From contig BROI01000015.1 in the NCBI GenBank assembly GCA_027923505.1, positions 1-64,000 on the forward strand: DNA of 64,000 bases, written 5' to 3'. Positions 3,801-64,000 of this stretch are shown in pieces. Position 1 is the stretch's first letter, and every line of letters starts with the position of its first letter. Under the pieces are notes generated by a model. That model was given only the letters and a program-made list of their open reading frames with translations, did not search any database and was not told where the DNA came from. A program made the position numbers and the translations under genes. This DNA is from Mayamaea pseudoterrestris (Eukaryota).

Positions 3801-5436
3801 GGGCAATCATTCCGTCAAAACCTGCTAGTGATGCGCTGAATCCTGTGTGCTCGGAGAAAGGGTCGCGTAGCATGTCGTATCGTTGTAAACCTGTCAGAGC
3901 TTCTGCGTCCATTTCGAGCAGCCAGATGACTTTCTTGTAGAACAGTGCGAGAAATTCGATCGTCGGCCGTGACCACTTCTCGGTCAGCCGCATTCCCTGC
4001 AGTTCCGTTCGCGCGCGTTCCTTCTCGATGAGCAGTAGCGCCTTCTTCGTATCGCGTTCGCAATCGTTGGTAGACTTCGCGTCCGTCCATCGTCTTCTTG
4101 AACTGCTGTACTGCGAGTGATGCAGGACGGAGTTCGACAGTGCGTGAGAAAGATCCTGTATACAAACACATTCTTCTTTGCATACGCCTTCTGTTCTTTC
4201 GGTCCCTTTTCCTTCGGGTCATAATCGTCGTCAAAGACTTCGTGGAAGTCATGCAATGTAGCGATGACTTTCAACTCGGAAATCCACTGTTTCCACGAGG
4301 AATCCAGCTTCATTTCTTTACAATCCCTCGCCGAGAACTTGATAGACTTCGTAAATTGGTCTGAATACTTCTCGTCGTCTTCGTCGTCGCCGAGGTCCAG
4401 TATGGATCTCGGTGACTGCCGCATCTTCAAAAACACACTCGTCGGTGGCACCTTGTCGGCCGAGTCAGGCCTCGACTCGTTGCCTTCGTTCGTTAGCGTG
4501 GAGTCCGGATTCGTCCTTCTTGGATTCCGTTTCGCTTTCCTTCGCTGGAGGTTTCGCTCCGCTTCCGCTGCCCACGCTCGCAATGTTGCGCGCTTGGACT
4601 CGTTCCTTCGCTCGTGCTGTGACGAACGTCGCCAGCGTTTCGGTGGTCAGTTGCGACCATGTCTTGATGTCCGGCGACTCTTGCGCCAAATACCATTCGA
4701 TCGCGTTCGTGATCGTGCGTTGTTTCATCTTCGTTAGCGAGTGTTCGCTCGTTTCCTGCGTGACATTGTCGCCATCGTCAGTCGTCGTCGTTGTCGTCGT
4801 CGTGACGTTCCACTTCGTCGCGAAATCGTCGTACTCCATCTCGATCAGTTGCGTAAGCGATTCTACTCCGAGTTCGTCGAATAACTCCTTGAACTGAGGA
4901 TCTTGGAAAACGCCTACGTTCTCTTCGTAAACATGCGCAAACGCCGCGTCTTTCTGCGCGCGAGTTTCCGCCATCGTTGTCGTCGTGACAATGTTCTTGC
5001 TATCACCTGCGGAACTTTCCGGGCCAAGAACCAACGTGCGTCCACGTTACTTCGTAAATCAATAGTACTCTTCGTCGATAAAGTCTCTATGCCGAGGCAA
5101 TGAGTCTCAAGACAGTGTTAATCTTGTAACTTGTAAATCAAATCGTTGCACCTTTCGCTTGTAGCTGTCCTTGGATGGCCAATCCAAGCTTGCAGTTGCT
5201 ACAATACGAGAGACGAATAAATCGCTTTCTTAACTCTTCAAGCTTAGTAAGTCTGCTTGTTTCTACTCTATATCGCACTAGTTTCAGCAATATACTTGTT
5301 GAATCGCTTCGAAGCCGTCGCTGCCACGCATCACGCGATCGTGAGGCTGTGGTGAGCCGCGAGTGCCGCTGTGTCACCCTATCGGACATTCGGTGTGACT
5401 TGCCCGATTTTCGCTGTTTTCGTTCGCATCCTGCAA
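838..5436 (-). mobile_element. Copia-like element B (CoDi-like), frameshifted and 3'-truncated: 5' LTR, gag, protease, integrase; no RT, RNase H or 3' LTR
   Basis: Gag fragments from about 4973, protease ALIDSGANGGLCG (2907-3191), integrase LLSDNAKSE...TTEPGHPEQNPCER (797-2275). The ORF stops at YKFGVRLPRNYKDA where the TRIM begins. Protease-integrase order with no RT between them is copia-type. Confidence 0.88.
5190..5436 (-). repeat. Probable 5' LTR of element B (247 bp, termini TTGCAG...CTGCAA)
   Basis: 6-bp inverted termini. The outer end coincides with the break in element A pol and with the TCGT duplication. Only one copy is present, so the inner boundary is inferred. Confidence 0.7.
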
Positions 5437-8400: not shown

Positions 8401-9248
8401 AACACTTTTCCAGTTTGATCAGTATAGATTTGACCAGTAGGCTTGAAAAAGGAGGCGTAGCAGTGGTGGCGCGTCGCAACGGTTCCTTCTTGGAGAGGAA
8501 AGAACACGTCGCTGTCGTCGTCGTCTGCGTCCACGTTTGTTGTTGTTGACTTGGTGGAGCGAATGCCTTGACGCAAAGCTTTCATGTGGCCTTTATGCAT
8601 GGCAATGGAGGCGGGCGGGTGCTTGCGGAGGTTGCTGGCGGTGAGGCCAGGAAAATGCGGGAGCAAGCCTTTGGAAAGGGCAGCCTCAAGGGTGCGGAGA
8701 CTGGGCGAGCCAAGGGAAGCATGATAGAACTTGAGGAGCTCAGGCAACTTGGGATCGCCAATGGTAGTAAGAGCGCTCTGGGGCAAAGGCGCAGGGAGCT
8801 CCATTTGCCAGAGGCCAGTGGCTGGACACCGAGCGCCACTCAGGACGAGCTCTTCTTTATAATGCACGAGGACTCGTTCCTTGTCAAGGGAAATGAGGCA
8901 GCCTGCATCACAAAGTGTGCCAAGGGAAAGTAGTGAGTGAGTTGATAAAGCAGGAACAATATGAGCTTTAGTGGCCGACTCGGGAAGGCCGGGGATGTTG
9001 AGCGTTGCCTCATGAGTGGAATGCATGAGGGTGCCGTTGGGAGTTTGAATTGCAAGTGGGGTTGTCGTAGCAATCTTGTTTAAGATGGGAGCGCTAACGG
9101 TGACAAAGTGGGCAGAGGCGCCACTGTCAGCTATGAGGGTAAAAGTAGGATTGGCGGGAGGACCAGTGATAGAAGATAACGAGAAACAAGTACTATAAGC
9201 ATGTGACATGGTGCTATAGGTGTTATCAATCACTGGCGTCCCTCCATC
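5437..9248 (-). CDS. Pol of copia element A (protease, integrase, RT, start of RNase H), interrupted at 5437
   Basis: IADSGASAHF protease; YTDQTG...RLDNE...NLAERAI integrase; IDIKDFYL, KGMYGLPQAG and LVVDDFG RT; HSDASY, SAAEAE and TDN RNase H motifs. Open frame begins right after the gag stop. Confidence 0.93.
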
Positions 9249-10376
9249 TCAGCTGCGAGGGTTGGCGGGATTGCGAGGACTCATCTCGGTAAGGGTGCCA
9301 CCCATGGTATTGTCAGCGGTCGCCGTGCTGACATGATTTGGACCAGGGTTTTGGCAAGTAGCGCTAGTGTGGCGGTAGTTGAGACCAAAGCCATGAGTGT
9401 GGCAATAGTGACGGGCGCGTGGTGAAGCGGTGGGCGCTGCCGCTGGCGTAGGCGTGATAGCTGGAGCAGGCGTGGTGGGTGTCGCAGGGGTGACACGAGT
9501 AGGTGCGGGCGTCACATCGCGAATGGCGGCCATTGCCTGCTGCAATTGGCGACGGAGGCGAGTTAACTCGGTGGTTTGTGCGATGTTGGCGTGATCCTGA
9601 TAGCCAGCTTGGCCAGCCGTGCGGTGCTCCAAGCGCTTGTCGTTGGCCTTGTTGAAACGGGACTGGAGATTCTCCATGGTGCGGTCCACCTCGTCGACAT
9701 CGCGGTCGTAGGCGGCGAGATCGGCGGCAAACACGCCACTGTTGTTGAGGACGAGGAGCGTGTCGTGGATCTGTTGTTCCGGGGGAATGGGCGTGCCGGC
9801 ATCTTCGGCAAAGTCGTTGATGTCGGTGATGCGACTCCAAATGCGCTCGATGGGATCGTTGGGATCCCATGGCGTGAGGAGACGAAGAACGTTGTCTTTG
9901 CGTTCCTGGTTGGAAACGCGTCCGTAGGCGGTGGTGAGATGCGTGAGGATCTGCAGCGTGGTGAGATTGGCGTAGATGGAACGACGGTTTCTGAGGACGG
10001 AATAGTAGTCTTCGTCGAGAGCAGCGAGTAGGCAAGCCTTGAGAGCAGTGTCGGCAACGAGCATGAGCTTGAAATCGTCAGATTTTTCCTTGTGAATGCG
10101 ATTGCGCTCAGTCAGTTGGTTTTGAGTAAGGCCAGCGACTTGAAGACCGAGCTCCTCGGGGCGAGCTGGGCGGTCAAAGGGAGCGTCTGGATCAGGGAAG
10201 CGTTCGAGGAGTTCGTCGTCCGTCATGCACAGAAAATCGTGGCCGTTGTCATCAGAACGGGCAGGAATCTTGCGAGCGTTGGCGCGGAGTTGAGCAGTGG
10301 CAATGGTAAGAGTAGAGTAAGTAGGCTTGCCTTCGATGATGGTCAAAGGATCGAGCGTAGGGAGCGTGATGTTCAT
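9249..10376 (-). CDS. Gag of copia element A
   Basis: Long ORF directly upstream of pol. First ATG gives MNITLP. C-terminal YCHTHG...HTSATC...H zinc-knuckle-like motif. Ends in a TGA in frame with pol. Confidence 0.85.
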   Translation of the reverse strand: MNITLPTLDPLTIIEGKPTYSTLTIATAQLRANARKIPARSDDNGHDFLCMTDDELLERFPDPDAPFDRPARPEELGLQVAGLTQNQLTERNRIHKEKSDDFKLMLVADTALKACLLAALDEDYYSVLRNRRSIYANLTTLQILTHLTTAYGRVSNQERKDNVLRLLTPWDPNDPIERIWSRITDINDFAEDAGTPIPPEQQIHDTLLVLNNSGVFAADLAAYDRDVDEVDRTMENLQSRFNKANDKRLEHRTAGQAGYQDHANIAQTTELTRLRRQLQQAMAAIRDVTPAPTRVTPATPTTPAPAITPTPAAAPTASPRARHYCHTHGFGLNYRHTSATCQNPGPNHVSTATADNTMGGTLTEMSPRNPANPRS

Positions 10377-10477
10377 CTTGGGATGGGAGGCACGGAGGAG
10401 GCGGCGGAGAAGGGTACGGAGGAGCTGGAGGATTCTGTGAGGAGCAATGGTAGCGGGTGGGTGAGATGTAACAATTC

Positions 10478-10660
10478 TGTTGAAGGGCCGCAAGGTACTA
10501 CAGCAGACACTCGAAGCAAACTAGTTCAATAACGTTGAATTGTTACATTATGAGCTGATGGCGGTAAGCGCCAGCAGACTCTTGCTAATCGAGTGGCTGA
10601 GAGCAAAGCGATGGAATGGATGGTGGACAGAATGGGATATTAATGAGTCATGGCGAGTGT
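10478..10660 (-). repeat. Probable 5' LTR (R-U5 part) of element A; outer boundary unresolved
   Basis: Ends ...CCCTTCAACA about 100 bp before the gag ATG. No matching TGTTG start is found before element C coding sequence takes over near 10690, so it is probably truncated. Confidence 0.55.
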
Positions 10661-13600: not shown

Positions 13601-15226
13601 CGGGCACCAGGTCCAGTCCAGCTCCTTGCCCTTGGCGTTCTTGGCCTTCTTGTGGAGCTTTCCATCCGTTGGTGCGGAGTCTCCGTCCGTCCTTGACCCG
13701 GTCGGCCCTCGCGTGGCGCCTTTGCGCCGATCTCGCCTTGGCTTCCCTTTGCAGGGCTTCGTCCCTTGGTGGTCGTTCTTCTTTCGCCGTGACTCTTGGC
13801 GTTACCGATAGCGCGTCGAGTGCGGCTGCGGTAGTCATCCGTTTGCTTACGCGCGTCGCACCGTTGTCCACGGCGACGGTGGTCGCAGCAAGTTGGGTGT
13901 GGTCTGCCCCCGGTTCTGTAGATCCTGGTCAACCCTGCGCACGTGGTCGTGAAACTTCTCGATGTTGTAGTCAAAGACTTCCGCTAGCTTGGTTCCTGAG
14001 CAGTCCATGATCTCCTTGTGGAGGTTGAATATGGTGGCCTTGGAGTCGAGCACCGTCTTGGTAATGATAACCATGAGGAGGGCGATGCCCGAGGCAGTGA
14101 CCACGTCCGAAGCCATTCCTTTGAGCTTGTACTCGCTAGCCGACAGGCGGATGCGCGCCTTCATGTCTGGGTCCAGCGACTGGATAATGGTCGAAGCCAG
14201 TTGGTTGTCGGCCTGAGCTTGGCGCGTCTGGGTCCCAAGGAAGGACTTGGCGTACTCTTGGACCTTGGTCATGTTGAGCTTGCCGTACTCCGAAATGAGG
14301 TTGGCGGTAGTCAGGGTGGTCCCCTGTTCGCACTTGGTGAGCGGCACGTCGTAAACGTTCCAGTTGAACTGAGTTCCTTTGTCGTCCAGGTCGGCGAGAA
14401 ACCCTGAGAGCTCCTCCGACTTGCCAGAGTACTTCTTGTCGAGTCCCTTGGAGGATTCGATGAATACCTTCATGTTCTTGGCATCGCTAAAGTTCATTGG
14501 CTGGTTGGTCGCCAATGGCGTAAGCTGGTACGCACTGCTGCTGGGAGCGGCCACCGCTGGTGGAGCACCTTGCTGCGCGGTGGCAGCCAAGGCTTCAGCG
14601 ACTGCGGCTGCGATGGCGGCTTGGAGAGCAGCCTGGTTGGCTTCCTGGTCCTGGAGGCGACGCACTTCGGTGGCGGCGGCAGCGGCTTCGTTGGCTTGCT
14701 GCATGGCTGCAATGCGTGCAGTCATCTCGGCGATCTGGGCGGCGTGGGCGTCCATTGCTTGTTATGTTTGTTGCGGGTTGCGCAGAGGAAGCGTGTTGTT
14801 ATGGTAATTCAGTCGAGGTCAACTGAAGGGCTCGGTGGTTACTACTTGCAAGTAACTAGAAATCAAAGAAGGTTTGCTTCGTTTGGTAACTGTGAGTGTT
14901 TAGTGTTACTGCTATAATTTACTGCCTTTGCAGGCCGAGTCTCGCCGAGGTGCGGGCTTGCTTGGGCCTGCTATGTATGATAGCCAGTGAACTTGCCGTC
15001 TTGCGGGTAATTAGGGTGCTTTGGCGTTTGTAGCCATTATTAACTGGTGATTGAACAGATAGTTAGAGAGTAAGTCAGTTGGATGCTTCGCCATCCCCTT
15101 GCCAATGGCGAGGCCTGCATCGCCATGGTCAGTCTGTGGCGAGGCTGGTTTGTGTGGACCGTACCGAATCCCGCCGATCTGTCGATGTCGCATGGACATC
15201 CATCTATGTCGCATACACATCCAACA
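10690..15226 (-). mobile_element. Copia-like element C, frameshifted and truncated after integrase
   Basis: Gag 14755-13427 with WCPHHAKWGQHAAADC. Protease FDTDSLQLRVDNCASYCIT. Zinc-binding WHHKLNH...CTSC. Integrase VSVDQLVS...IFVDQFS...FQNGIAERHI. Ends near LRRSQR. Confidence 0.88.
14794..15226 (-). repeat. 5' LTR of element C (433 bp, TGTTG...CAACA)
   Basis: Canonical 5-bp inverted termini. Inner end lies 39 bp upstream of the gag ATG and is followed by a tRNA-complementary segment. Confidence 0.75.
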
Positions 15227-15299
15227 CCTCGGTGTAAGCTTGCATAATATATACAGGTGTGTACTGCCAACAGTCGTATGTGTGCATCGCCAAACAACT

Positions 15300-16150
15300 T
15301 GACACCATCATCTGTAGCTCCCAGTTTGTCTCTCAGCACCCAACTTAGCAGCTTGCCATCAAGTGTGCCATCAAGTGATCCAAGCACCAAGCCCGGTGAA
15401 TAATCTAGCGCAGGACCCAGTCTCCTTCCCGGTGCAGCATCAAGCTTGCCACCCTCTGTAGCTCCCAGTCTGTCTCTCAGCACCCAACCCAGCAGCTTGC
15501 CATCAAGTGTACCATCAAGTGATCCAAGCACCAAGCCCGGTGAATAATCTAGCGCAGGACCCAGTCTCCTTCCCGGTGCAGCATCAAGCTTGTCACCCTC
15601 TGTAGCTCCCAGTTTGTCTCTCAGCACCCAACCCAGCAGCTTGCCATCAAGTGTGCCATCAAGTGATCCAGGCACCAAGCCCACTGAATAATCTAGCGCA
15701 TGACCCAGTCTCCTTCCCAGCGCAGCATCAAGCTTGTCACCCTCTGTGGCTCCCAGTTTGTCTCCAGGCACTCAACCCGGCAGCGTGCCATCAAGTGTGC
15801 CGTCAAGTGATCCAAGTGCCAAGCCCAGTGTGTGACTCACTTAGTGCAGGGCCCAGTGTCCATCCTGCAGCAGCAATGTTGTGCCCCTCTGTGAGTTCCA
15901 GTTTGTCTCTCAGCACCCAACCCAACAGCTTGCCATCAAGTGTGCCATTCAGTGACCCAAGCGCCAAGCCCAGTGTGTCATCTAGCACAGGACCTCAACT
16001 CCTTCCCAGTGCAGCAACAAGCTTGTCCCCCACTGTGGATCCCACTTTCTTACCCAGCAGTCACCCTAGCAGCTTGCTATCAAGTGTGCCATCAATTGAT
16101 CTAAGCAGATTTTCCTCCAAACATTCACCCATGCAGCTTGCCATCAAGTC
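15300..16150 (+). repeat. Degenerate 144-bp tandem repeat (about 6 units) built from 12-bp subunits; decayed Pro/Ser-rich coding repeat
   Basis: TGTAGCTCCCAGT-type motif recurs at about 15313, 15457, 15601 and 15745. Plus strand gives PSSLPSSVPSSDPSTKP with an in-frame TAA in several units. Confidence 0.8.
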
Positions 16151-34938: not shown

Positions 34939-35028
34939 TATGGCGTGCGTCGTCAATTGCTGCGACTAATTGTATCTGTAAGAAGGCTCGTTCTGTCTCG
35001 AGGCAACGTAATGCAGGCAGCAGCAGCA

Positions 35029-35392
35029 GTGAGCAACACGCTGGGATGCATGCGCTGATTTGGATCGCGCGCAGCGATGGATGGTCATTCGAGCTGGAAG
35101 GGGGTGTTCACCCCCACCGATCGCCGTGGGCCTTTGGTAGCTATCAATTGCAAGCCAGAGCATATAGCTGTGCAATAGTCCCGTAGCACATTAGACTTCC
35201 ATACCAGCAAAGCATGCAGTGAAACATTGCGACAACAGTCAGTAATAGTATTTACAATATTTATTACAATCACCCTACTCGCCATTGTGCCATGCCCCGC
35301 ATCCATGTGAGAAAAAAAGATGAGCATTTTACAACTACGATTCATCAACGTTCCTAATCCAAATGCCGACGCTTTTCTGTCCCTCCTCGTTG
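35029..35392. repeat. 364-bp duplicate of 44352-44715 (last codons of UTP20 plus downstream DNA)
   Basis: Colinear at offset 9323 with about 7 substitutions counted by eye. Confidence 0.95.
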
Positions 35393-38287: not shown

Positions 38288-39238
38288 CTATGACAATTGC
38301 GAAAGTAGTTGATCCGCAGCTCGCTCCACGTTGTTGTTTGTCGCCTGCAGCGTGCGAACTACTTGATCTTGGTCAAAGCCCATCATGACGAGCTGCTCAA
38401 TGGCGGCTGGGTCTGCTTCACGACAACTGGTCGTGGCGGAGCTACTACTGGGCGAACCATTGGACGAGCATTAGCAGCCGCAGCATGATGATTCAAGACG
38501 TTTACTCCATTGGCTGCTGTGGAAATCAAGACGCGCGGTGGCGCTTGCACCTTTTGCAGCAGCAGCGTCGCGTGGCTGGCAAGCCCCATGACGTTTGGAA
38601 ACTGCAGTTGCAGCCTGCAAAACAAGCAGCAAGCCATCATTCCCCAATATAGCGGGTTGCAGTCCCTCACGGAACAATACTAGGCCAAAGAGATAAAAGA
38701 TTGACTTTTCCGATGCTTCCAAACCAAGAATGGAGAAGAAGCTTGGATATAGTCGCGGCGCGTAGCAGTAGTAGAGCCACAGGCAAGCTCCCAGCAGCGG
38801 ATACGGTCCGTCGTAACGCTTGCCTGGCATGACATTGACCGTCAGTAGCTCCAACAGTATCACGAGAGCATTGCAAAAGAGACATAGCCATATGAACCGC
38901 AAGCTTCCAAGCTCACGCTCATATCTTCGCCCAAACGTCCCCAGCAGTATACCTCCAAGTATGAGAGGACCCGGCGCTGAAAAGGTTAATTTACAAACCA
39001 TCAGGCGAAATATTATGGCAACTATGCTCGCCGTTGGTTCGTTGTTTTCGTAATATTCAAGTAAATGCCAAACGTTTCGCATCAGGTACAGCAGCAAGAC
39101 TTGGGCGAGGAGCAGTTTTGTCACTGGCGCGCCGTCAAACATTTTGAAACTAGAGCCTGCTGCTGCATGGTGACTGCGAGCGGCGGCAGCTGGAGGTACT
39201 GCTGGAGGTACCATGATGTTTTGAATAGGGCGGGGCAT
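38288..39238 (-). pseudogene. Rhomboid-like plus UBA protein (UBAC2/Dsc2-like), frameshifted
   Basis: FDGAPVTKLL...RRYERELGSLRF...GPYPLLGA membrane domain. The UBA domain DPAAIEQLVMMGFDQDQVVRTLQATNNNVERAADQLL lies in a different frame ending at 38288. Confidence 0.7.
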
Positions 39239-39254
39239 GTGACAATGTCATGGG

Positions 39255-42200
39255 TGTTGGATCTAGAATATATCTTGCGCGCCCTTGAAGCGACACTAAT
39301 GATTAAGCAGAACAGAGTCAATAAAACCACTTTACTTATTTTCTCCAAGAAGTGATCGTCCTCGATCCACTCCTTCGGTTGCCGCTTACCGCGCTTACTT
39401 AAATGTGACCGTCTTCGTGACGTCACCGCTGCCGCTTCGGTTTGGGTTCTCATCCATGCTCAACACACTCCTTTGGGCCGAGTAGTACTTACTGCTCGAG
39501 GCCAGATTCATAACCAGGTTGCGGAGCTTGCCAAACTGGGCTCCCTGCAATGGTTTCGTGAAGAAATCCGCGACCATGTCTCCGGTCGGACAATGCTCAA
39601 TGTTGACTTCACCAGCTGCCACGCGATCTTTCACAAAGAAGTACCGAACATTCATGTGTCGCGTGCGCTTTGTACTTGAGCTTCTGCCATTCTTTTCCAA
39701 CAGCATTGAACTCATATTGTCTTGATACAATTTCGTGTCTTTGACCCCGAAACCTTGCGCCTTCAGAAAATATCCTGTCCACAGCAACTGCGGTAGCACA
39801 TCATGAACTCCCACAACTTCGCTCTCCGTCGAGCTTCTTGTTACCAACTTCTGTTTAGCCGACGTACTGTACACTGATCCTTGGCCAAGTGTCATTGTTC
39901 CACCAGTGTGACCCTTCATGTCTGGGTGCACCGCGTACGACGCATCCACCCACCACTGGACTATCCCGGACTGGTCCGCCTTCAGCGTCAACACCATGTC
40001 CACGCTTCCGCGTAAATATTTAATCACTCTTGCAGCCTTCTTATAGTCGTCTTCGTCAGGCTGCTGCAGCCTCGTGCTCAAGAAAGAAATCGCTGTGCGA
40101 ATATCCGGTCGCGCTCGCTGACTCAGATACAGACACTGCATCACAATCGTCACAAAAATCTGCTTCTTCGCTTCGCTCAACATGACAGGATTTTCCGATA
40201 TCTGAAACAAGTGACTGGCTGCCGGAGTAGCTGCCGTTCCATCCATGTCGTCTGGCGCATGATGCAGGATGTTCTTCACATAGTCAACCATGTTGATTGC
40301 TACTTCTCCAGGCTTAGTATAGTCCAATACCATGCCGAGGTAGTCGTGCACTTTTCCGCGTGACTTATTCATTGGAGTCTCCTTGCCAAACTCCTCATCC
40401 ATCTGCGCGATGAACTCATCCACTACGCTCACGTCGACGTGCGAAATCTTCAAATCGTCCACGTGCCATCCCACGGTGATTTGCTTCCCATTGACAATCT
40501 TGTTGCACACACACGGATCGTACGGGTTCTTCTCGAAGCCCCACTCAAGCAATTTTGCGGACAACTTCTCCCAGAATAGTCGCGCTGCTCGAAGCGTACC
40601 ATAAAGCGCCATGAGTAATTCAACATACATGACTTTCTCGCCATTCTCCATTGTGACGCAAGGCTCGTACATCTCGCGATCAATTTCCAACAGTAGCTCC
40701 ACCATCTTCCCAGTGAAACGAACGTGCACCAACTCATCCATTTCCGCTTGCATGAAAGCACCCGGTACATCAACCACAGCAACCTCGCGCCCTTCCATAG
40801 CGTCAATGATAGCTGTCAGAAAGATGGCCTCTGTCGCTATCGTTGGAGATGCTGCGTCTTCCTTTGCAGTGTATGCTCGTTGCTTGCGTCCATCCGCGCA
40901 TCCGCGTCCCTTCACAGTCCCGCATCTCTTGCGCTTGAGAAACATCAAATACGCCAGAGCGTCCTTGCGCTGCTGCGGAGTCAGAGTGCATTGGGGGACT
41001 GCCTTCATGACGTGCCTGTCGTGTAGCTGCTGCATTTCCTTGCGCACTGCCTCCACTCCAGCATCGCCAAAAGCCTTTAAACCTTGTCGCATATTCATCT
41101 GTGCCGTGACGAGTGGCTCCGACACTTCCTCTGCAGCGTCGAGCGTGAACAAATGAGCGAACGAGCGAGGTTTGCGCGCACGCAGGCCATACCGACCAGT
41201 GCGTGGGCCATAGCGCGCATCGAAATCCTCTTCGTCTGCAGCAGCTGGCACTCCTTCAATTTCGCCTTCATCGGGCACTCCTTCAATTTCGCCATCATCC
41301 ACGGCTGGCGCGTCGTCAAGTTCGCCGTCAATGGCCTCACCATCCTCGTCGTTCGGCACTCCTTCGATTGCGCCGTCAGCACCATCGTCGTCGTCGTCGT
41401 CGTCATAATCAGAGTCATCATCATCCTCGGCGTCATCTTCGTGCCACATGACTGGCTCAGCAGCCTCCGCAACACGGTGGCGGTCCATGAACACGATGCC
41501 CGGATTGGCCTTCTGTTGACGAGCGAGACGATGCACGCGCTCAATGACATCATCAGGCATGGGCAAAGGCGTAGCGTGCCCACGATTCAGAACTTTGCCC
41601 GAAGACAAACTGAGGAAATAAAACCCACCCTGCACATTACCAGTCGGGCGCAGAGCCAGCGCACCGATCGTGCGCGCCTGCATGTCATTGCTGTGCGACT
41701 CATGCGTTTGCACATACTGACCAAATTCATACTTGCAATGCCGATTAAAGTCAACTGTCTGACCAGTCACAATAGTGCGTGGACTGAGATCCTTCGAAAT
41801 GCCACGCTCGTTCGGAAACGCATTCAACCAAAACACGGCAGACTTCGTCATTTCGATAACCAAGCGTGCCGGCACGTGCTTAAATGGCAACGTGTTGTAT
41901 GTCGCGCGCACCCGTTCTTTCACGACACGGATAAAACGTTCAATTTCGCCAACGTGTTCATCCTCAGATGTCGCATTGAGCGCCACTCCGAGATCAGCCA
42001 ACGCGCCAAGCATTGGAGCGAACTCCCCATCCATCAGAGCCGCGACGACACGGAACCCACCGCGTGCGTAAATCTTCAACACAGACTCGATTGCCTTCAA
42101 CATAACCGGAAGCGTACGGTTTTGAATCACCTCAACCGTAGCAAAACGAATGCTGCGGGAGAACGTCACCAACATAGGGACTTTGTTGATATACATGATG

Positions 42201-44351
42201 TCAGCACAAAGAGTAACGTCTCGATAGCGACTCATGATAGCCGGTGGAAGCTGCTCAACAATCGCAGGCTTCACCAGATGCGACGCGCGACGCGTCGTCT
42301 TTCCTTTTAACGAGCCAACATCTGGTCCAAAGATGTGCTCAGCAGCCAGGATGTCGGCCTTCGTCACAGGACAGTTCGGCAACTGATTGCTAGTAACGAT
42401 GCGCAGGTAATCCTTGAGGCTTGGCCGTCCAATTTTGATTTGCAGTTCCCTAGCTCTAACAGCGCGTAAATAGTCATCATTGGTGTAGTTAGTACGGTTA
42501 TCGTCTACCGTAGTCAACATCGCCACTCCATCCTTGACATCGCTGCGCTTGCCCTTCGAAAAGCTCTCGCAAACATACAGCCCAGAGTCAGTCTCGACAA
42601 ACTCTCGCTGCTTACCATCCGGCTTCTCCACAACGAACATTGGACGATCCACGCCGTGCATGAGATACTCCACGGTAAACTTCTTGCGGACTTGCGCCAA
42701 ACTCAAAATGTTCGCCAGTCCCTGCGGATACCACCACACCGGACCATAGCCCTCCAGGTCGCCCATCATGTTCGTCCTTACTGTACCAGCGTTGCACTTG
42801 ATCACCATCCACGTTGGCACCGGGCGAATGTTCGTCAGCATCTTGGCGTTGCAGAACAGATCCACTGTCGACTGATTGTCCAAGAGCACAGCCTTCTTCG
42901 AGATGTTCACCTTCGGCGGCTGCGCGAACATGTATCCGACCTCATCGTCGTCATCGCTTTCTTCCTCGCTACCCAGCGTGAAGTGCTGCGCCCCACTAGC
43001 CTCTGCAGCCGGCGCACTCTCCGTAGACTCCGTTCTCGTAGGACAGTCTCGCTGCACATGACCAACCTGTTGACAGGTCCAGCATCTGGGAGGGTCACGC
43101 GCTGTACCAGTCGTGTGAAACGCCACGCCCTCGTTCGTTGGCAACGTGGCTTCTCCATCCGCATGCTCACGACGCTGCATGATGTTGTATGCATCGTGGA
43201 TCGTCAACGGGAAGTTGTCGTGCCCGTCGAGGTAGCAGTTGCGCAAGTGCTTGCAATACCCAGCGTATTCGCCCGTTGCGCCACGCACGAAAAGCATCGC
43301 AAGCTCGAGCTCTTCGGCGGCCTTGATATCCTCCTTGTTCGCCTTGTTACGATTGTCATCCTTGGCAATGTTCAACGCCACAATCTCGTTGTGCATCGTG
43401 ACGCCAACCGCCTTCGCCACGTCTGCCAGCGTGACCATGCTTTCGTAATATTTCTGCAGGCTTTCGCGCGCTCCTTGAGTACGTCCGAACAACTCAGCTT
43501 GAATGTCCACGACTTGATCCACAAGTTTGCAGCGCCCTTCGTACGTATGCGAGATCTCCTTGATAATCGCCAGCAACTTAATTCCGTCCGTGTCCTCCTC
43601 GGCGTCTCGGAACTTGGCGTGCGACTTGACACGATCCTTCATACGCTCCGTGCATTGTCCATGCAACACGGCGTAGAGACCAGCGAGGAAGTCGGAGTAT
43701 ACACGCACGCGCTCGACATGCTCTTTCTTGTCGGCCTTGTATTCCTCGAGCATTATGGACCAGTCCGAGTCCGTCGTGTCGGCATCCTTCGTTGGACGTG
43801 CAGGCTCGTCAGGAATCTCCAGTTCCACGTTGCGCATGCCCTTGAGCAGCTCCTTGGTATATTTCTTGTAGGAGCGCCCGACGAAAGTGATGATCTCGTT
43901 CGTCGTACGGATGAATCCATCGGGATCGCGCGAACCGTTATAGTCGTAGATGAATCCAGCGAGCGTCGGCTCGCTTCCTTGGAAATTTCCACTCGGCGCA
44001 CGACTCGGTCCGTTGAGTCTGTTACCATTGCCTTGATTCCCGGAACGATTCCCAGCACGATTCCCACGACGATAATGACGGTTGCGTCGGTTTCCTTCGC
44101 TTGCTGGCGGAGCGGGAGGTGCACCTCCACCGCTCGACGCCGCTCCTGTCGTCGGAGTATTGCTCGTCGAAGACATGTCTTTTCACTCGCTTCTTGGAGA
44201 AAATGTTGGATCTAGAATATATCTTGCGCGCCCTTGAAGCGACACTAATGATTAAGCAGAACAGAGTCAATAAAACCACTTTACTTAAATGTGACCGTCT
44301 TCGTGACGTCACCGCTGCCGCTTCGGTTTGGGTTCTCATCCATGCTCAACA
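39255..44351 (-). mobile_element. Full-length Ty1/copia element D with LTRs 44204-44351 (5') and 39255-39465 (3')
   Basis: LTRs TGTTG...CAACA, identical except for a 63-bp indel. Purine tract AAAGGAG just before the 3' LTR. Palindrome GTGACGTCAC in U3 (39417-39426). Flanks ATGGG and GTGAG do not match, so there is no TSD. Confidence 0.96.
39395..44176 (-). CDS. Intact single Gag-Pol polyprotein of element D (1593 aa)
   Basis: CWTCQQVGHVQRDC knuckle, LLDNQST protease, ADIMY...DGEF...EIER integrase, VDVPGAF/ALYG/WHVDD RT and VDASYA...STESE...QDN...ADFFTKPL RNase H, in copia order. Confidence 0.96.
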   Translation of the reverse strand: MSSTSNTPTTGAASSGGGAPPAPPASEGNRRNRHYRRGNRAGNRSGNQGNGNRLNGPSRAPSGNFQGSEPTLAGFIYDYNGSRDPDGFIRTTNEIITFVGRSYKKYTKELLKGMRNVELEIPDEPARPTKDADTTDSDWSIMLEEYKADKKEHVERVRVYSDFLAGLYAVLHGQCTERMKDRVKSHAKFRDAEEDTDGIKLLAIIKEISHTYEGRCKLVDQVVDIQAELFGRTQGARESLQKYYESMVTLADVAKAVGVTMHNEIVALNIAKDDNRNKANKEDIKAAEELELAMLFVRGATGEYAGYCKHLRNCYLDGHDNFPLTIHDAYNIMQRREHADGEATLPTNEGVAFHTTGTARDPPRCWTCQQVGHVQRDCPTRTESTESAPAAEASGAQHFTLGSEEESDDDDEVGYMFAQPPKVNISKKAVLLDNQSTVDLFCNAKMLTNIRPVPTWMVIKCNAGTVRTNMMGDLEGYGPVWWYPQGLANILSLAQVRKKFTVEYLMHGVDRPMFVVEKPDGKQREFVETDSGLYVCESFSKGKRSDVKDGVAMLTTVDDNRTNYTNDDYLRAVRARELQIKIGRPSLKDYLRIVTSNQLPNCPVTKADILAAEHIFGPDVGSLKGKTTRRASHLVKPAIVEQLPPAIMSRYRDVTLCADIMYINKVPMLVTFSRSIRFATVEVIQNRTLPVMLKAIESVLKIYARGGFRVVAALMDGEFAPMLGALADLGVALNATSEDEHVGEIERFIRVVKERVRATYNTLPFKHVPARLVIEMTKSAVFWLNAFPNERGISKDLSPRTIVTGQTVDFNRHCKYEFGQYVQTHESHSNDMQARTIGALALRPTGNVQGGFYFLSLSSGKVLNRGHATPLPMPDDVIERVHRLARQQKANPGIVFMDRHRVAEAAEPVMWHEDDAEDDDDSDYDDDDDDDGADGAIEGVPNDEDGEAIDGELDDAPAVDDGEIEGVPDEGEIEGVPAAADEEDFDARYGPRTGRYGLRARKPRSFAHLFTLDAAEEVSEPLVTAQMNMRQGLKAFGDAGVEAVRKEMQQLHDRHVMKAVPQCTLTPQQRKDALAYLMFLKRKRCGTVKGRGCADGRKQRAYTAKEDAASPTIATEAIFLTAIIDAMEGREVAVVDVPGAFMQAEMDELVHVRFTGKMVELLLEIDREMYEPCVTMENGEKVMYVELLMALYGTLRAARLFWEKLSAKLLEWGFEKNPYDPCVCNKIVNGKQITVGWHVDDLKISHVDVSVVDEFIAQMDEEFGKETPMNKSRGKVHDYLGMVLDYTKPGEVAINMVDYVKNILHHAPDDMDGTAATPAASHLFQISENPVMLSEAKKQIFVTIVMQCLYLSQRARPDIRTAISFLSTRLQQPDEDDYKKAARVIKYLRGSVDMVLTLKADQSGIVQWWVDASYAVHPDMKGHTGGTMTLGQGSVYSTSAKQKLVTRSSTESEVVGVHDVLPQLLWTGYFLKAQGFGVKDTKLYQDNMSSMLLEKNGRSSSTKRTRHMNVRYFFVKDRVAAGEVNIEHCPTGDMVADFFTKPLQGAQFGKLRNLVMNLASSSKYYSAQRSVLSMDENPNRSGSGDVTKTVTFK

Positions 44352-44676
44352 GTGAGCAACACGCTGGGATGCATGCGCTGATTTGGATCGAGCGCAGCGA
44401 TGGATGGTCATTCGAGCTGGAAGGGGGTGTTCACCCCCACTGATCGCCGTGGGCCTTTGGTAGCTATCAATTGCAAGCCAGAGCATATAGCTGTGCAATA
44501 GTCCCGTAGCACATTAGACTTCCATACCAGCAAAGCATGCAGTGAAACATTGCGACAACAGTCAGTAATAGTATTTACAATATTTATTATAATCACCCTA
44601 CTCGCCATTGTGCCATGCCCCGCATCCATGTGAGAAAAAAAGACGAGCATTTTACAACTACGATTCATCAAAGTTC

Positions 44677-47600
44677 CTAATTTAAATGCCGACGCTTTTC
44701 TGTCCCTCCTCGTTGGGTTCTTCTTTCGTCCACCCGTCGCTTGTGTCGCTGCTTTTCGCGCTCGTGCTTTTGAATCTTGCGCTTTGCTGACGCTTCTGGA
44801 TCTACAATAGCTTCAGTTTTTATTTCAAGCTTGCGCTGATCCTTCTTCTCCTGAAACCTAGTCTTAACTGCACCATACGCCACAACAAACTTATCATTCG
44901 TGTCGAATTGCTGCTCCAGCATGACGAGAATATCCTTGGCAAGTCTCGATTCCTCAGTTGCCGCATCCCCAAGGGGACGCTCATTTTGTTGTACTAAATG
45001 AGGAAGGTCGAGCACATTGCGCGTCTCCAATTCGGACCGGTGCAAAGGTTCGATAATCAATGGCAAATCACCCTCGATTATGTCCGGACAACAAGTTGCA
45101 AAAGAAGCAAAACACATGTATACGGCCTTGCGGCGCTTGGATCCCTTGTTCTTCGCGCTTTGTGATAACCGCTTCAGCACCATGGATGCTCCGTCACTAG
45201 AATTTTTAGAATTGCCGACAATGAGACTAGGACATCGATGAATGGCCTGGAGAACCCAGGTGAGCGATTTGGCCAGATCAGTTGATAAGTCGTCGTCGTA
45301 TTCATCCTCGTCCAGACTGGCCAAGCGACATAGGCCTCTCGCAAGTTCCTCCAGCGATCCTGGATGTTTGGCGACAAATGAAATGCTGCTCATCTTGTCA
45401 GCGACGAGCTCGTTAATGACAAACAAGTTAAGATACTTTGCCAATAGCCGACACGCTGAACGCCGCACCCATGGGTGTTTAGACCAAAGAGCACGTGACG
45501 TGCCAACCCAAAGATTGCTTCTCGGGACAATTATGTCGTTCAGTCCTTCATAGAGCTTGTCCAGATCGAGCAGCGAGAAATAGACTAGCTCCCAGTCTGA
45601 TGAAGGATTGTGCAGGATCGAGTCCATTACACAAAGCATCCTATCAAGCTCTCCCTGCCGACGCAAAAAATCTGAGCATGATTCTACGAACAATCCAAAC
45701 AGCTGCAACGCTGTGCGCACGAGAGTCTCTTGACCGCTAGACCATCGCAAAACGTATTCATAGCAAAGTTGCAGCGATTTTTGAGCGAGTCGGCCCAGCA
45801 ATGATCTGATGCAGCTCGCAACCGCATTTCGACACTCTTCGGACAAATCATTTGCCAGTTGCAACGTCAGCGGTAGAAAGAAGAGCTGAAGATGATGATC
45901 TAAAAGCTCCAGCGGCAATCGCTTAATCACTGTCGATAGCAATTGGATTGCTGAAAGGCGCCCATCTGCGTACTCGTATTTAATGTTTAAGACGGCCTGC
46001 TTCAGGTGCTGCTCAATCCTTTCCGTCGACATGGGATATGTAAGCAGAAAATTGATAAACGTTGTGGTGCTTTGTTCACGAAGTGATGGCTTGTGGCTTT
46101 TCGCCGTTTGTTGCAGAAGAGTTTCCATCAGATCGTAAAATTCTGATGAAGCAAAGCGACGCGACATTATCGCCTTTAACAGGCGAAAAGCAGGGTTGTA
46201 ATTATCGGAATCAACGATGGAAGCTCGAACAAAGGAAAGTAGTAATTCCATCTGTGCATTATCTAAAAGCTGATGACTTGTAGTAGCGGCATCGCTTCCG
46301 TCTAAGCCTCTCTTTCGTTCAAAATCTAGCAAATATGCCAACATTTTATAACAGGACTGAGCAGTTTCGTTGTTCTGGTTGCGTGCAGACCCAGATAATG
46401 TCAGTAATTGAACAGCCTTTGATGACAAGGAGGTGGCGTAGACCTCGAATGATGGAAGGTCAAAGCTAAGAAGTAAGCACAAAGTTTTTAAGGCAAGAAA
46501 CACCACCTCTAAATCGCTGCATGTGCAGACACAGGCTGTGAGGATTGGAACAAAGACATCAAGCTTAACCAAATCCACCTGTTCAGACCGAACCTGCTTC
46601 ACAGCAGAATGCAACAACTGCAAGCCGAAAAGGACAGCACTAACACTTGCAGGGTTGTTTATTGATAGCGCACTACTGTCCACCAATCGCAAATGTCGAT
46701 TTGCGCCCGTGAGCGTCGGTGCGCTGCAACCGTCCTGCACAGTAGCAAGGTTTCTTTCCGACAACCTTTTGGCCAGTCGCGCTTCATTTGCAGTCGAAGA
46801 AAATCCTGAGACAGACGGCCGCCATTCAGCGACGCTGAGTTGGCGTGAGCAAGAATGTACCATGGTCGCATTGGCTAGGCTCCCGCTAACGTGAAGCGGC
46901 GTGCAAGCATCGTCATCGCTCTCCAATCCGGCAATAAGATAAAGTGACGACGTGACAGCTTCGACCGAATGTCGCCTTATGAAGGGTTCTATCGTAGCAT
47001 GCACAAATGCAAGGGCCTCGTCGCTTCCAAGACTCGAGTTCCGTGATAGACCAGTGACGATGCGCGTCAGGCACTCTTTGATCCTCCTGATCAAGCCGGC
47101 GCTGATTGTCGGATTTTTCAGCCGCTCCAAAAAAGGAATAACAATGACATGAACAGTACTTTTCTCTCCAGTCGATGGCTTAAACAAAATTAAGCTTGAA
47201 ATAATTTCAAGCGAGTGGTAGCTTTTCGATCCAGCTGCTTCTTTCACGTAGCGAACCTGGTTGCCTTCTGCATCTTTTCGCTCTTGTGCATCACCAAAGA
47301 TGTCCTGTTGTATCAGATCTATCATTCCTGGGACTGCATTGTCAAATCCAATCTCAGCTTCTTCATTTACTCCCAGGTCAGGAACTGTATATGATAGAGA
47401 AAGCTCCAGCAAAATGGAATGAATTGTTGCAGCTCGCACGTGCAGCTGATAGCCCTCCTTCAAAGTAACGGCAAGCTCTCTAATGATATCTGCGAGAAAC
47501 GTTATATCAAGTGACACTGTCATGTGTGCGAGAGTTGTTCGAGCTAGGTCCCTAACATTCGAATCTCGGTTCTTAAGCATGCCGCATATAACTGTTAGCA

Positions 47601-59942: not shown

Positions 59943-60784
59943 TGTTATTTGGGCACTTGCATGGCTTGATATATAAGCATTTGATTGTCATGGCATCTTC
60001 TGGCTGAGACTGGTGAGAAACATTGCAGTCTATTGAGACACCAGCCCGGCATACCATCTTGTAGCGCAGCCTGACTAATGATGCTGGCACCATTCTTGTG
60101 TAATTTGGGCACATACATGGCTTGGCGTATGGGCCACTTGAATGTCAAGACATCTGCAGGCCAAGACTGGTTACAAATTCTTACCAGTCAAGCATTGCAG
60201 TCTACTGAGACTCCAGCCAGGCACATCATCTTGTAGTGCAGGCTGGAAATGATGCTGGCAAGATTCTGGTGTATTTTATGGGCATACATGGCTTGATATA
60301 TCTGAATTTAAATGTCAAGGGATCTATGGGCTGAGACTGGTGAGAACTTCTCACCAGTCACATTACAGCCTACTGAGATGCCAACAGGGCATACAATCTT
60401 GTAGCACAGCCTGAATAATGATGTTGGCACCATCCTTGTGTGATTTTGGGTGTATATGTGGCATGTTATATGGGCAATTAAATGGCAAGGCAACTGCAGG
60501 CTGAGACTGGCAAGAAGTTCTCACCAGCCCCATTGCAGTCTACGGAGACAGTAGCCATGCACATATCATCTTGTAGTGCAGCCTAAATCATGATGGTGGC
60601 ACCTTCCTTGTGTGATTTGATTGTATAAATGACATGATTTAGGGACAATTGAATGTCAAGGCAACTGCAAGCAGAGACTGGTGAGAAGTTCTCACAAGTC
60701 ACATTGCAGTCTACTGAGACACCAGCCAAGCATACCATCTTGTAGTGCAGCCTGAAAAATGTTGTTGACACTATTTGGTGTAAT
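59943..60784 (-). repeat. About 5 degenerate copies of the 169-bp satellite in reverse orientation
   Basis: Reverse-complement motifs CCATCTTGTAGYGCAGCCTG and GGCTGAGACTGG recur about every 170 bp. Confidence 0.9.
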
Positions 60785-63700
60785 GTATTTGGTAACAACT
60801 TGTCACCAGTCTCAGCTCGCAGATGTTGTGACACTCAAACGCCCCTACAGCAAGCCCTGTAGGTGCCCAAAATATACCAGAATGGTGCTAACATCATTAC
60901 TCAGGCAGCACTACAAGATGGTAGGCTTGACTGGTGTCTCAGGGGTTGGCAATGTATTTGGTGACAACTTGTCATTAGTCCCAGCCCCCAGATGCCGTGA
61001 CATTCAAATGCCCATACAGCAAGCCCTGTAGTTGCCCAAAATCACACCAGAATGGTGCCAACATCATTATTCAGGCTGCGCTACAAGATGGTAGGCTTGG
61101 CTGGTGTCTCAGGGGATGGCAATGTATTTGGTGACAACTTGTCACCAATCTCAGCCTGCAAATGCCGTGACATTCAAACGCACCTACAGCAAGCCCTGTA
61201 GGTGCCCTAATTACACCAGAATGGTGCCAACATCATTATTCAGGCTGCGCTACAAGATGGTAGGCTTGGCGGGTGTCTCAGGGAATGGCAAGGTATTTGG
61301 TGACAACTTGTCACCAGTCTCAGCCAACAGATGCCGTGACATTCAAACGCCCCTACAGCAGGCCCTGTAGGTGCCCAAATTACACCAGAATGGTGCCAAC
61401 ATCATTATTCAGGCTACGCTACAAGATGGTATGCCTGGCTGGTGTCTCAGGGGTTGGCAATGTATTTAGTAAAAACTTGTCACCAGTCTCAGCCAACAGA
61501 TGCCGTGACATTCAAACGCACCTACAGCAAGCCCTGTAGGTGCCCACATAACACCAGAATGGTGCCAACATCATTATTCAGGCTGCGCTACAAGATGGTA
61601 GGCTTGGCTGGTGTCTCAGGGGATGGCAATGTATTTGGTGACAACTTGTCACCAATCTCAGCCTGCAAATGCCGTGACATTCAAACGCACCTACAGCAAG
61701 CCCTGTAGGTGCCCTAATTACACCAGAATAGTGCCAACATCATTATTCAGGCTGCGCTACAAGATGGTAGGCTTGGCGGGTGTCTCAGGGAATGGCAAGG
61801 TATTTGGTGACAACTTGTCACCAGTCTCAGCCAACAGATGCCGTGACATTCAAACGCCCCTACAGCAGGCCCTGTAGGTGCCCAAATTACACCAGAATGG
61901 TGCCAACATCATTATTCAGGCTACGCTGCAAGATGGTATGCCTGGCTGGTGTCTCAGGGGTTGGCAATGTATTTGGTAAAAACTTGTCACCAGTCTCAGC
62001 CAACAGATGCCGTGACATTCAAACGCACCTACAGCAAGCCCTGTAGGTTCCCACATAACACCAGAATAATGCCAACATCATTATTCAGGCTGCGCGACAA
62101 GATGGTGGGCTTAGCTGTTGTCTCAGGGAATGGCAATGTATTTGGTAAAAACTTGTCACCAGTCTCAGCCAACAGATGCCGTGACATTCAAACGCACCTA
62201 CAGCAAGCCCTGTAGGTGCCCAAATAACACCAAAAATGGTGGCAACATCATTATTTAGGCTGCGCTACAAGATGTTAGGCTAAGTTGCTGTCTCAGGGGA
62301 TGGCAATGTATTTGGTGACAACTTGTCACCAGTCTCAGCCAACAGATGCCATGACATTCAAATGCACCTACAGCAAGCCCTTTAGGTGCCCAAATTACAA
62401 CAGAAATGGTAACAGCATCATTATTCAGGCTGCACTACAAGATGGTAGGCTTGGCTGGTGTTTCAGGGAATGCCAATGTAATTGGTGACAACTTGTCACC
62501 AGTCTCAGCCAACAGATGCCATGACATTTAAATGCACCTACAGCAAGCCTTGAAGGTGCCCACATTACACCAAAATGGTGCCAACATCATTATTCTGGCT
62601 GCGCTACAAGATGGTAGGCTTGGTGGGTGTCTCAGGGAATAACAATGTATTTGGTGACATCTTGTCACCAGTCTCAGCCTGCAGATGCCGTGACATTCAA
62701 ACGCACCTACAGTAGGCCAAGTATATACCCAAATCACACCAGAAATGGTGCCAGCATCATTATTCAGGCTGCGCTACAAGATGGTAGGCTTGGTGGGTGT
62801 CTCAGGGGATGGCAATGTAATTGGTTACAACTTGTCACCAGTCTCAGCCAACAGATGCCGTGACATTCAATCACACCTACAGCAAGCCCTGCAGGTGCCC
62901 ACATTACACCAGAATGGTGCCAACATCATTATTTTTAAGGCTGCGCTACAAGATGGTGGGCTTAGCTGTTGTCTCAGGAAATGGCAATGTATTTGGTGAC
63001 AACTTGTCACTAATCTCAGCCTGCGGATGCTGTGACATTCAAACGCACCTACAGTAGGCCAAGTTTATACCTAAATTACACCAGAAATGGTGGCAACATC
63101 ATTATTTAGGCTGCGCTACAAGATGGTAGGCTTAGCTGTTGTCTCAGTGAATGGCAATGTATATGGTGACAACTTGTCACCAATCTCAGCCTGCGGATGC
63201 CGTGACATTCAAACACACCTACAGAAGGCCATGTATATACCCACATTGCACCAGAATGGTGCCAACATCATTATTCAGGCTGCGCTACAAGATGGTAGGC
63301 TTAGCTGTTGTCTCAGAGAATGGCAATGTATTTGGTGACAACTTGTCACCAGTCTCAGCCCCCAGATGCTGTGACATTCAAACGCCCCTACAGCAAGCCC
63401 TGTAAGTGCCCAAATTACACCAGAATGGTGCCAACATCATTATTCAGGCTGCGCTACAAGATGGTAGGCTTGGCTGGTGTCTCAGGGGATGGCAATGTAT
63501 TTGGTGACAACTTGTCACCAGTCTCAGCCTGCAAATGCCATGACATTCAAACGCACCTACAGCAAGCCCTGTAGGTGCCCAAATAACACCAGAATGGTGC
63601 CAACATCATTATTCAGGCTGCGCTACAAGATGGTAGGCTTGGCTGGTGTCTCAGGGGATGGCAATGTATTTGGTGACAACTTGTCACCAATCTCAGCCAG

Positions 63701-64000
63701 CAGATGCTGTGACATTCAAACGCCCCTACAGCAAGCCCTGTAGGTGCCCAAATTACACCAGAATGGTGCCAACATCATTATTCAGGCTGCGCTACAAGAT
63801 GGTAGGCTTGGCTGGTGTCTCAGGGGTTGGCAATGTATTTGGTGACAACTTGTCACCAGTCTCAGCCCGCAGATGCCGTGACATTCAAACGCCCCTACAG
63901 CAGGCCCTGTAGGTGCCCAAATTACACCAGAATGGTGCCAACATCATTATTCAGGCTGCGCTACAAGATGGTATGCCTGGCTGGTGTCTCAGGGGTTGGC
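60782..64000 (+). repeat. 169-bp tandem satellite array (about 19 monomers, runs off the window end)
   Basis: Same motifs every 169 bp (e.g. ORF starts 61104, 61273, 61442, 61611, 61780, 61949); no unique spacers. Confidence 0.97.

Follow-up and report, generated by a model that had tools for sequence, protein, structure and literature searches.

We analysed a 64,000-nucleotide stretch of the pennate diatom Mayamaea pseudoterrestris (contig BROI01000015.1 of assembly GCA_027923505.1, positions 1 to 64,000; hereafter the window) and describe in it a retrotransposon, element D, in which the sequence at the primer-binding-site position is complementary to a segment of the element's own long terminal repeat (LTR). 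All D coordinates are positions in the 64-kb window; the element lies on the minus strand and its sense is read from that strand. The parts of D that bear on the argument, with the two complementary stretches named arm1 (inside the LTR) and arm2 (at the primer-binding-site position), are the following.

44351-44204, minus strand: 5' LTR, short form, 148 nt, TGTTG...CAACA, lacking the 63-nt segment with the putative start and primer; found by direct and exact repeats.
44190..44204, minus strand: primer-binding-site position (arm2), the LTR-terminal A followed by TTTTCTCCAAGAAG (44203-44190).
39395..44176, minus strand: gag-pol, a single frame of 1593 amino acids, with a zinc knuckle at residues 364-379 and RVT_2 at residues 1084-1307.
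39466..39474, minus strand: polypurine-like tract AAAGGAGTG, immediately ahead of the 3' LTR, by reading the sequence.
39465-39255, minus strand: 3' LTR, long form, 211 nt, with TGTTG...CAACA ends; found by direct and exact repeats.
39339..39401, minus strand: 63-nt segment present in the 3' LTR only, bounded by the 7-nt direct repeat TAAGTAA; its placement is ambiguous by 7 nt.
39354..39367, minus strand: GATCG-AGGA-CGATC, a small inverted repeat just ahead of the putative start, noted by eye.
39351..39355, minus strand: TCACT, matching the diatom initiator-like motif TCAH(+1)W with C 39352 as +1.
39338..39352, minus strand: putative self-primer (arm1), CTTCTTGGAGAAAAT, bases +1 to +15 of the predicted transcript, a perfect complement of 44204-44190.

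D is a Ty1/copia element (Pseudoviridae), as seen from its copia-type reverse transcriptase (RT), its gag zinc knuckle and the TG...CA ends of its LTRs. Pfam detects RVT_2 at E=3e-16 and zf-CCHC at E=4e-5, and residues 1000-1560 of the polyprotein are 100% identical to an NCBI protein named for M. pseudoterrestris. About 286 residues remain after the RT, and some 700 lie between zinc knuckle and RT; Pfam picks up no integrase, protease or RNase H domain even when E is relaxed to 5, nor do Pfam and PDB sequence searches give an integrase match for residues 560-900. If the putative start is accepted, the 3' LTR would consist of a U3 of 113 nt (39465-39353) and an R-U5 of 98 nt (39352-39255), the latter measuring 70-175 nt in the relatives of D described below.

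Complementarity at the primer-binding-site position

The 5' LTR of D ends ...TCCAACA at 44204 and is followed at once by the 14 nt of arm2, whereas the 3' LTR contains, at 39352-39339, their exact complement CTTCTTGGAGAAAA. The perfect run is 15 nt once the LTR-terminal A (44204) and T 39338 are counted, and a repeat search extends the arms to 39338-39355 and 44187-44204, with 17 of 18 positions (94%) complementary. The initial annotation of this DNA had drawn attention to the 14-nt match, to an extension of 16 in 17 (the 17/18 arms minus the LTR-terminal A) and to TCACT at 39355-39351 with the match starting at C 39352. The sequence bears out each of these points. Allowing up to one mismatch, the 14-mer occurs at only these two places in the window; the expected number is 0.05 per dinucleotide shuffle, and none of 100 shuffles had two or more matches.

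Just 13 nt separate arm2 from the gag ATG, too few to accommodate a different primer site. An operational definition of self-primers takes a complement to the 5' LTR of at least 10 bp that starts 0-5 bp after the LTR (PMC6317226); in D the LTR complement at this place is 14 nt long when counted from +1, and 15 nt with the terminal A. The duplex between the arms is retained in the minimum-free-energy fold of D.

Covariation of the arms among relatives

The initial annotation had proposed a compensatory-change analysis in relatives, and its outcome is clearly positive. An alignment of D with 19 homologues served to scan metagenome contigs, giving 603 pattern matches of which 592 encode a relative. 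The best 80 matches correspond to 78 loci with 33-67% amino-acid identity in the best segment. Direct repeats more than 2.5 kb apart are present in 27 loci, and the junctions from pol end through LTR to gag start are readable in 23 of these; 14 further loci have the gag-start anchor and upstream sequence only, which brings the number examined to 37. The remaining 41 of the 78 do not contain the LTR/gag junction region and stand outside the counts.

We find perfect Watson-Crick arms of 13-18 nt, an LTR-internal arm1 facing an arm2 at the LTR end (...CAAC|A), in 29 of the 37 relatives, with loops of 45-158 nt between the arms; counts out of 30 below are these 29 loci plus D. In all 29 the original contig runs without a break through both arms, so the pairing owes nothing to joining. 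One more locus, L014, pairs at 13 of 15 positions with two U.G pairs, and is an older copy whose LTRs are 92.9% alike. As a control, 480 mononucleotide shuffles of the junctions gave a longest arm of 12 nt, reached in 4 of them.

The pairing is kept while the sequence changes. There are 27 different arm1 sequences among the 30, all four Watson-Crick pair types occur at pair positions 2-12 and 14, and three types at positions 1 and 13. No G.U pair is present in the arms of the 29 loci and D, the sole exception being the decayed copy L014; uninterrupted Watson-Crick arms fit a site that is copied from the RNA primer in each cycle, as in Tf1. In all three loci with two copies of arm1 (L020, L058 and L070), the arm is found in both the 5' and the 3' LTR, which indicates that the normal architecture has the arm in the 5' LTR, unlike the copy in the window. 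Single-sequence minimum-free-energy folds retain the duplex in 29 of the 30. The same folds, which involve no covariation analysis, place a small hairpin 2 nt after arm1 in many loci; this hairpin recalls, by analogy, the U5-IR-like stem-loop of Tf1. Tf1 reportedly needs its U5-IR stem-loop. Small inverted repeats comparable to the one ahead of the putative start in D are seen at the same place in several relatives, again by eye. No metagenome contig among the relatives checked begins at arm1, as transcripts would.

The clade is large, with more than 1000 related proteins in public data. One of them, P0084, a partial relative of the D polyprotein with 71% identity, is entered at NCBI under a metagenome-assembled genome of a Nitrososphaerota archaeon and is probably a mis-binned eukaryotic retrotransposon fragment. 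The direct repeats of L006 and L060 are 3788 and 2598 nt long with periods of 5210 and 6029 nt, which suggests tandem arrays of elements with common LTRs, or circular forms in the assembly; a single LTR and the internal part, circularly permuted, make up many of the other contigs.

Boundaries and length of the arms

The arms begin and end at constant places. In 25 of the 30, arm2 has the terminal A of CAACA as its first base, and in 4 it begins directly after that A; in L011, L024 and L058 it ends 1-2 nt ahead of the gag ATG. None of the 30 primer-site positions starts with TGG. Judged by the missing TGG start and by 27 distinct sequences, rather than by the tRNA set of the host, there is no tRNA-type primer site in these elements.

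The 5' edge of arm1 lies at TCA in 20 of the 30 and at CA in 25, the motif preceding the arm or the arm beginning with its A. Against background frequencies per position of 0.021 for TCA and 0.078 for CA, the binomial probabilities are 7e-21 and 5e-16. Aligned on that A, the edges give the consensus G-C-T-C-A-[C/T]-[A/T], with C or T at +1 in 24 of 25 and A or T at +2 in all 25. TCAH(+1)W has been proposed as an initiator-like motif in diatoms (PMC4686930), and the edge pattern of arm1 fits it. From the A of the edge to the last base of arm1 the distance is 15 nt in 20 of 25, 14 nt in 3 and 16 nt in 2. Going by the motif and by this constant distance, arm1 would be the very 5' end of the transcript.

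A chance origin of the complementarity was considered and rejected on the window shuffles, the junction-shuffle control and the binomial statistics of the edges.

Two LTR forms in the window copy

Is the copy in the window able to carry out such a cycle? The two LTRs of D are 100% identical over 84 + 71 nt and differ by the single 63-nt segment, which contains the inverted repeat, the TCACT motif and the self-primer stretch. The 5' LTR thus has neither the primer-like stretch nor the putative start site. A transcript of Tf1 type would start in the 5' LTR, and that of D has neither TCACT nor primer; the window copy is defective for the proposed cycle. Nor is there a target-site duplication around D, the 5-nt flanks being CTCAC upstream and CCCAT downstream. 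The description of D as intact in the initial annotation does not stand, given that the putative start and the primer stretch are deleted from the LTR in which the geometry of Tf1 needs both.

Other runs inform on the long LTR to different degrees. In runs X1 and X3, D is found in a collapsed, circularly permuted contig that passes from 44203 into 39255 and through the long LTR with zero differences; in these two runs the long form is thus no rarer than the short one. The contigs of runs X2 and X5 do not distinguish long from short LTRs; among the matches listed, those of X5 stop at 44287 and start at 39327, and these breaks may be the branch between the two LTR forms. Depth in run X2 is about 1100-1200 inside D and 35-44 in the flanks, a figure that is not a copy number and that suggests the presence of D in many copies.

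The ends of the 63-nt deletion deserve attention. They fall in two TAAGTAA repeats, of which the downstream one has the last base of arm1 as its first base, the place of the predicted RNase H cut; were a deletion placed at random in a 211-nt LTR, we estimate that about 1 time in 25 it would end there. This coincidence is suggestive of a mis-aligned strand transfer, and no more than that. A template switch between the TAAGTAA repeats during plus-strand strong-stop synthesis could have produced the deletion and would yield just this pair, the 5' LTR short and the 3' LTR long. It could also have arisen by replication slippage after integration, or by recombination between short and long copies, which would account for the missing target-site duplication as well.

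D sits in a rearranged locus. The 369 nt upstream of it are the 3' end and trailer of a UTP20 gene and form part of a duplication, 35024-35392 and 44347-44715, with 97.8% identity, one copy of which comes within 2 nt of the 5' LTR of D. A 30-kb contig of run X2 joins the UTP20 side straight to the sequence below 35024, without D; the haplotype in the window therefore has about 9.3 kb extra, made up of D, 3.9 kb and the duplicate.

A second copia-type element and other features

A second element of copia type occupies the minus strand at 5379-10493, with a gag-like frame (9249-10493) and, downstream of it, a frame (5379-9233) that contains RVT_2. It shows a shorter version of the signature, just upstream of the gag-like frame and with arm2 directly after TCAACA.

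10466..10548, minus strand: arm1 ATGTAACAATTC at 10548-10537, a 59-nt loop ending CAACA (10482-10478), and arm2 GAATTGTTACAT at 10477-10466.

This is the only perfect pair of at least 12 nt with a loop of 30-300 nt in a scan of the whole window. By a rough estimate, one 12-nt pair with such a loop is expected in 64 kb, so only its location, after CAACA and upstream of a gag-like frame, gives it weight. Self-BLAST, repeat search, short-word BLAST and exact 13-mers reveal no LTR pair for this element, and it has no protein similarity to D at E=1e-3. It is probably the one that the initial annotation named element A, from which, together with D, it had argued that two copia families share the architecture, making chance unlikely. 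The 12-nt version after CAACA speaks for that claim, and is weak on its own in an element for which no LTR pair was found.

In D itself, the polypurine-like tract and the first five bases of the LTR have a double role, a cis element coinciding with a coding motif in a frame that ends within the LTR. AGGAGTG|TGTTG encodes R-S-V-L of the polyprotein, and the gag-pol stop codon sits 71 nt inside the 3' LTR. R1569, S1570, V1571 and L1572 are nearly invariant in the alignment of D with its 19 homologues, and GGAGTG|TGTTG is found in 17 relatives. Within the region of acidic repeats (41242-41430), contigs of X1, X2 and X5 have about 54 unaligned letters at 41395-41406 and align a 12-nt stretch twice there, which suggests that most copies of D have a longer Asp/Glu-rich repeat tract than the copy in the window. 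An 18-nt inverted repeat (16/18; 39230-39247 and 44606-44623) brackets D outside its LTRs and may be due to chance.

Away from D, a tandem array at 60697-64000 with a period of 169-170 nt and at least 17 copies, 60-99% alike, reaches the end of the window, and related repeats at 170-nt spacing begin near 59943. A 144-nt tandem repeat of four copies, 77-95% alike, lies at 15306-16119 and overlaps a frame at 15040-15771. Near the start of the window there is a 206-nt direct repeat, 162-367 and 632-837, 100% identical and spaced by 470 nt.

Discussion

The complementarity of the arms, their position, their covariation, the motif at their edge, their constant 15-nt length and the lack of a tRNA-type site, taken together, point to D as a member of a large diatom Ty1/copia clade that most likely primes its own reverse transcription, in the manner of Tf1. 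The RNA of Tf1 pairs with its primer-binding site through the leading 11 nt and is cut by RNase H between nucleotides 11 and 12 (PMC7175516). By analogy, RNA polymerase II would start at the initiator-like TCA inside the LTR, in D at TCA|C (39352) of the long form, and the first 15 or so nucleotides of the RNA would fold back over the R-U5 loop to pair with the LTR-terminal A and the next 14 or so. The element's RNase H would cut at the 3' end of the paired stretch, and from the freed 3'-OH minus-strand strong-stop DNA would be primed and extended through U5 and R. Once the first transfer has taken place, the 3' R would serve as the template for recopying the primer stretch, and plus-strand strong-stop synthesis would copy the RNA primer back into the primer-binding site. 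Because the primer would be recopied in each cycle, the arms would stay perfectly complementary while their sequence drifts between families.

Several points weigh against self-priming and have to be set beside it. The window copy cannot demonstrate the mechanism in cis, the complement of the primer site being missing from its own 5' LTR, and the geometry of Tf1 claimed for it in the initial annotation holds only in part: the primer-binding-site position does pair with an LTR-internal stretch at an initiator-like TCA, but that stretch is in the 3' LTR alone. The contigs of X1 and X3 cannot prove long 5' LTRs in other copies of D, because the 84 nt common to both forms exceed the word of the assembler. 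Among the relatives, 7 of the 37 are without the signature; L007, L050 and L077 of these have 700 nt of upstream sequence, L022, L027, L039 and L046 less than 230 nt, and a relaxed search of the seven with up to 3 mismatches found nothing. The edge of arm1 is without CA in 5 of the 30. The search favoured perfect runs, which makes the Watson-Crick counts and their purity partly circular. The start site, the RNase H cut and the priming step we infer from sequence comparison.

What else might the pairing be? If it were a conserved RNA structure, such as a panhandle at the 5' end or a pairing of 5' and 3' parts that cyclises the RNA as CYC5/CYC3 does in Ty1, and served packaging, dimerisation or control of reverse transcription, the primer would be something else, and these elements have no other primer site: in 29 of 30, arm2 starts with the last LTR base or the base next to it, and in the three loci where it runs almost to the gag ATG it leaves 1-2 nt. 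A purely structural stem is also less expected to be uninterrupted Watson-Crick and free of G.U in 29 loci and D, and has no obvious reason to measure a fixed 15 nt from an initiator-like motif. There is precedent for a structural role in Ty1, likewise of the copia superfamily, which needs long-range pairing beside its primer-binding site with a stretch near the 3' end of the RNA (PMC3592414); the sole arm1 of the window copy lies in the 3' LTR, which fits 5'-3' pairing, and the duplex kept in 29 of 30 folds is predicted by any structural role too. On balance we regard a purely structural function as unlikely.

That the match in D is a by-product of the 63-nt insertion or deletion, the 3' LTR having gained a complement of the leader by aberrant reverse transcription or gene conversion, is very improbable. 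It is true that the arm lies in a segment of only one of two otherwise identical LTRs, in a rearranged locus without target-site duplication. However, the long LTR is carried by collapsed contigs of two other runs, relatives have the arm at the same place of the LTR, and in both LTRs where two are present, and by reading the sequence the 63-nt segment is no copy of the leader complement past the arm of 14-15 nt. Least credible is that a host RNA primes after the LTR and the LTR match is incidental; such an RNA could be the 3' end of a tRNA, an internal half of one, as Drosophila copia uses, or some other small RNA. Ty1/copia elements are as a rule primed by tRNAs or tRNA halves (PMC6317226, PMC3592414), and the comparison with the host tRNA set is the point at which this explanation finds room. 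A tRNA primer would, however, keep its site conserved, and we find 27 different sites in 30, none with TGG, each perfectly complemented by a stretch of its LTR some 50-160 nt further upstream; the window contains no tRNA gene, and Rfam finds no family at gathering score on 38900-44800 (one snoRNA-like match, 18.8 bits against the 45 needed).

Returning to self-priming, the observations on both elements and on the deletion can be joined in a wider reading, which we consider possible but doubtful. Self-priming over about 15 nt would be obligatory in a large, old stramenopile clade of Ty1/copia elements and, given the signature at 10466-10548, would either have arisen repeatedly or be ancestral in the copia superfamily, rather than being a peculiarity of Tf1/sushi. 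The primer site would be rewritten in every cycle, which would explain why no other part of the element varies as much or is matched as perfectly, and the 63-nt deletion of D would be the footprint of a strand transfer mis-aligned on TAAGTAA, marking the RNase H cut site in vivo.

Comparison with known systems

As in Tf1 and Tf2 of S. pombe and other Tf1/sushi elements, the site after the 5' LTR complements an LTR stretch taken as the transcript start, there is no tRNA-type site, and the arms are separated by a hairpin-rich R-U5 loop; the primer is expected to come from RNase H cutting where the duplex ends (PMC7175516). D is nonetheless not a Tf1/sushi member: those are Ty3/gypsy elements with the order RT-RH-INT (RT, RNase H, integrase), whereas D has a copia-type RVT_2 near its C-terminus (residues 1084-1307 of 1593). 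The diatom arms measure about 15 nt (13-18) against 11 nt in Tf1, and their duplex, unlike that of Tf1, mostly includes the LTR-terminal A (25/30). Self-priming of Tf1 has been tested at the bench, while the diatom elements are known here from their sequence.

The initial annotation had spoken of self-priming as described for Ty3/gypsy elements. This is correct as far as it goes and incomplete, since two plant Ty1/copia families, Houba and Osr-1, have also been proposed to prime themselves, and the entire TAR lineage is predicted to do so (PMC6317226). D and its relatives resemble TAR in being Ty1/copia and in satisfying the operational definition of self-primers (PMC6317226); the hosts of TAR, unlike that of D, are land plants.

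Fungal GalEa copia elements also have no tRNA-type site, and their Conserved Hairpin Site includes the final A of the 5' LTR (PMC5445492). It is, however, a local palindrome and hairpin downstream of the LTR, for which the published account, in its description of the site, reports no LTR complement (PMC5445492); the diatom site is not palindromic and its partner lies inside the LTR. With CYC5/CYC3 of Ty1 the diatom elements share perfect long-range pairing in the RNA of a copia-superfamily element next to the LTR end (PMC3592414). Ty1 has a tRNA-iMet site with the pairing beside it (PMC3592414), whereas in the diatom elements the pairing occupies the primer-site position itself.

The CoDi copia elements, which are specific to diatoms and form seven groups, share with D, in the general features compared, a diatom host, a single gag-pol frame, a length of about 5.1 kb, short LTRs and TG...CA ends. 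CoDi elements are recorded from 5182 bp and their LTRs from 153 bp (Maumus et al. 2009, PMC2806351); the main text of that study is silent on primer sites (PMC2806351). A literature search that covered neither subscription journals nor supplementary files found no paper on self-priming in diatom copia elements. Mechanisms of this kind are not new, and their occurrence in copia elements of diatoms seems not to have been described before.

Implications

From the signature follows a rule that is open to test: TCA is followed by about 15 nt, and these pair with the LTR-terminal A together with the 14 nt beyond it. This rule predicts both transcription starts and RNase H cut sites. It also bears on how such elements are found, as annotation pipelines that require a tRNA-type primer site may discard them; a study of Cyclotella cryptica kept only LTR candidates with a tRNA-type primer site (PMC7466962). 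If self-priming is confirmed, silencing based on tRNA fragments would not apply to these elements. Confirmed, the finding would bear as well on the old idea that hairpin or self priming came before tRNA priming (PMC3601003). Confirmation would widen self-priming from the gypsy elements of fission yeast and vertebrates and a predicted plant copia lineage to an abundant copia clade of algae, and one of the major classes of diatom transposons would then be replicating with no tRNA of the host as primer.

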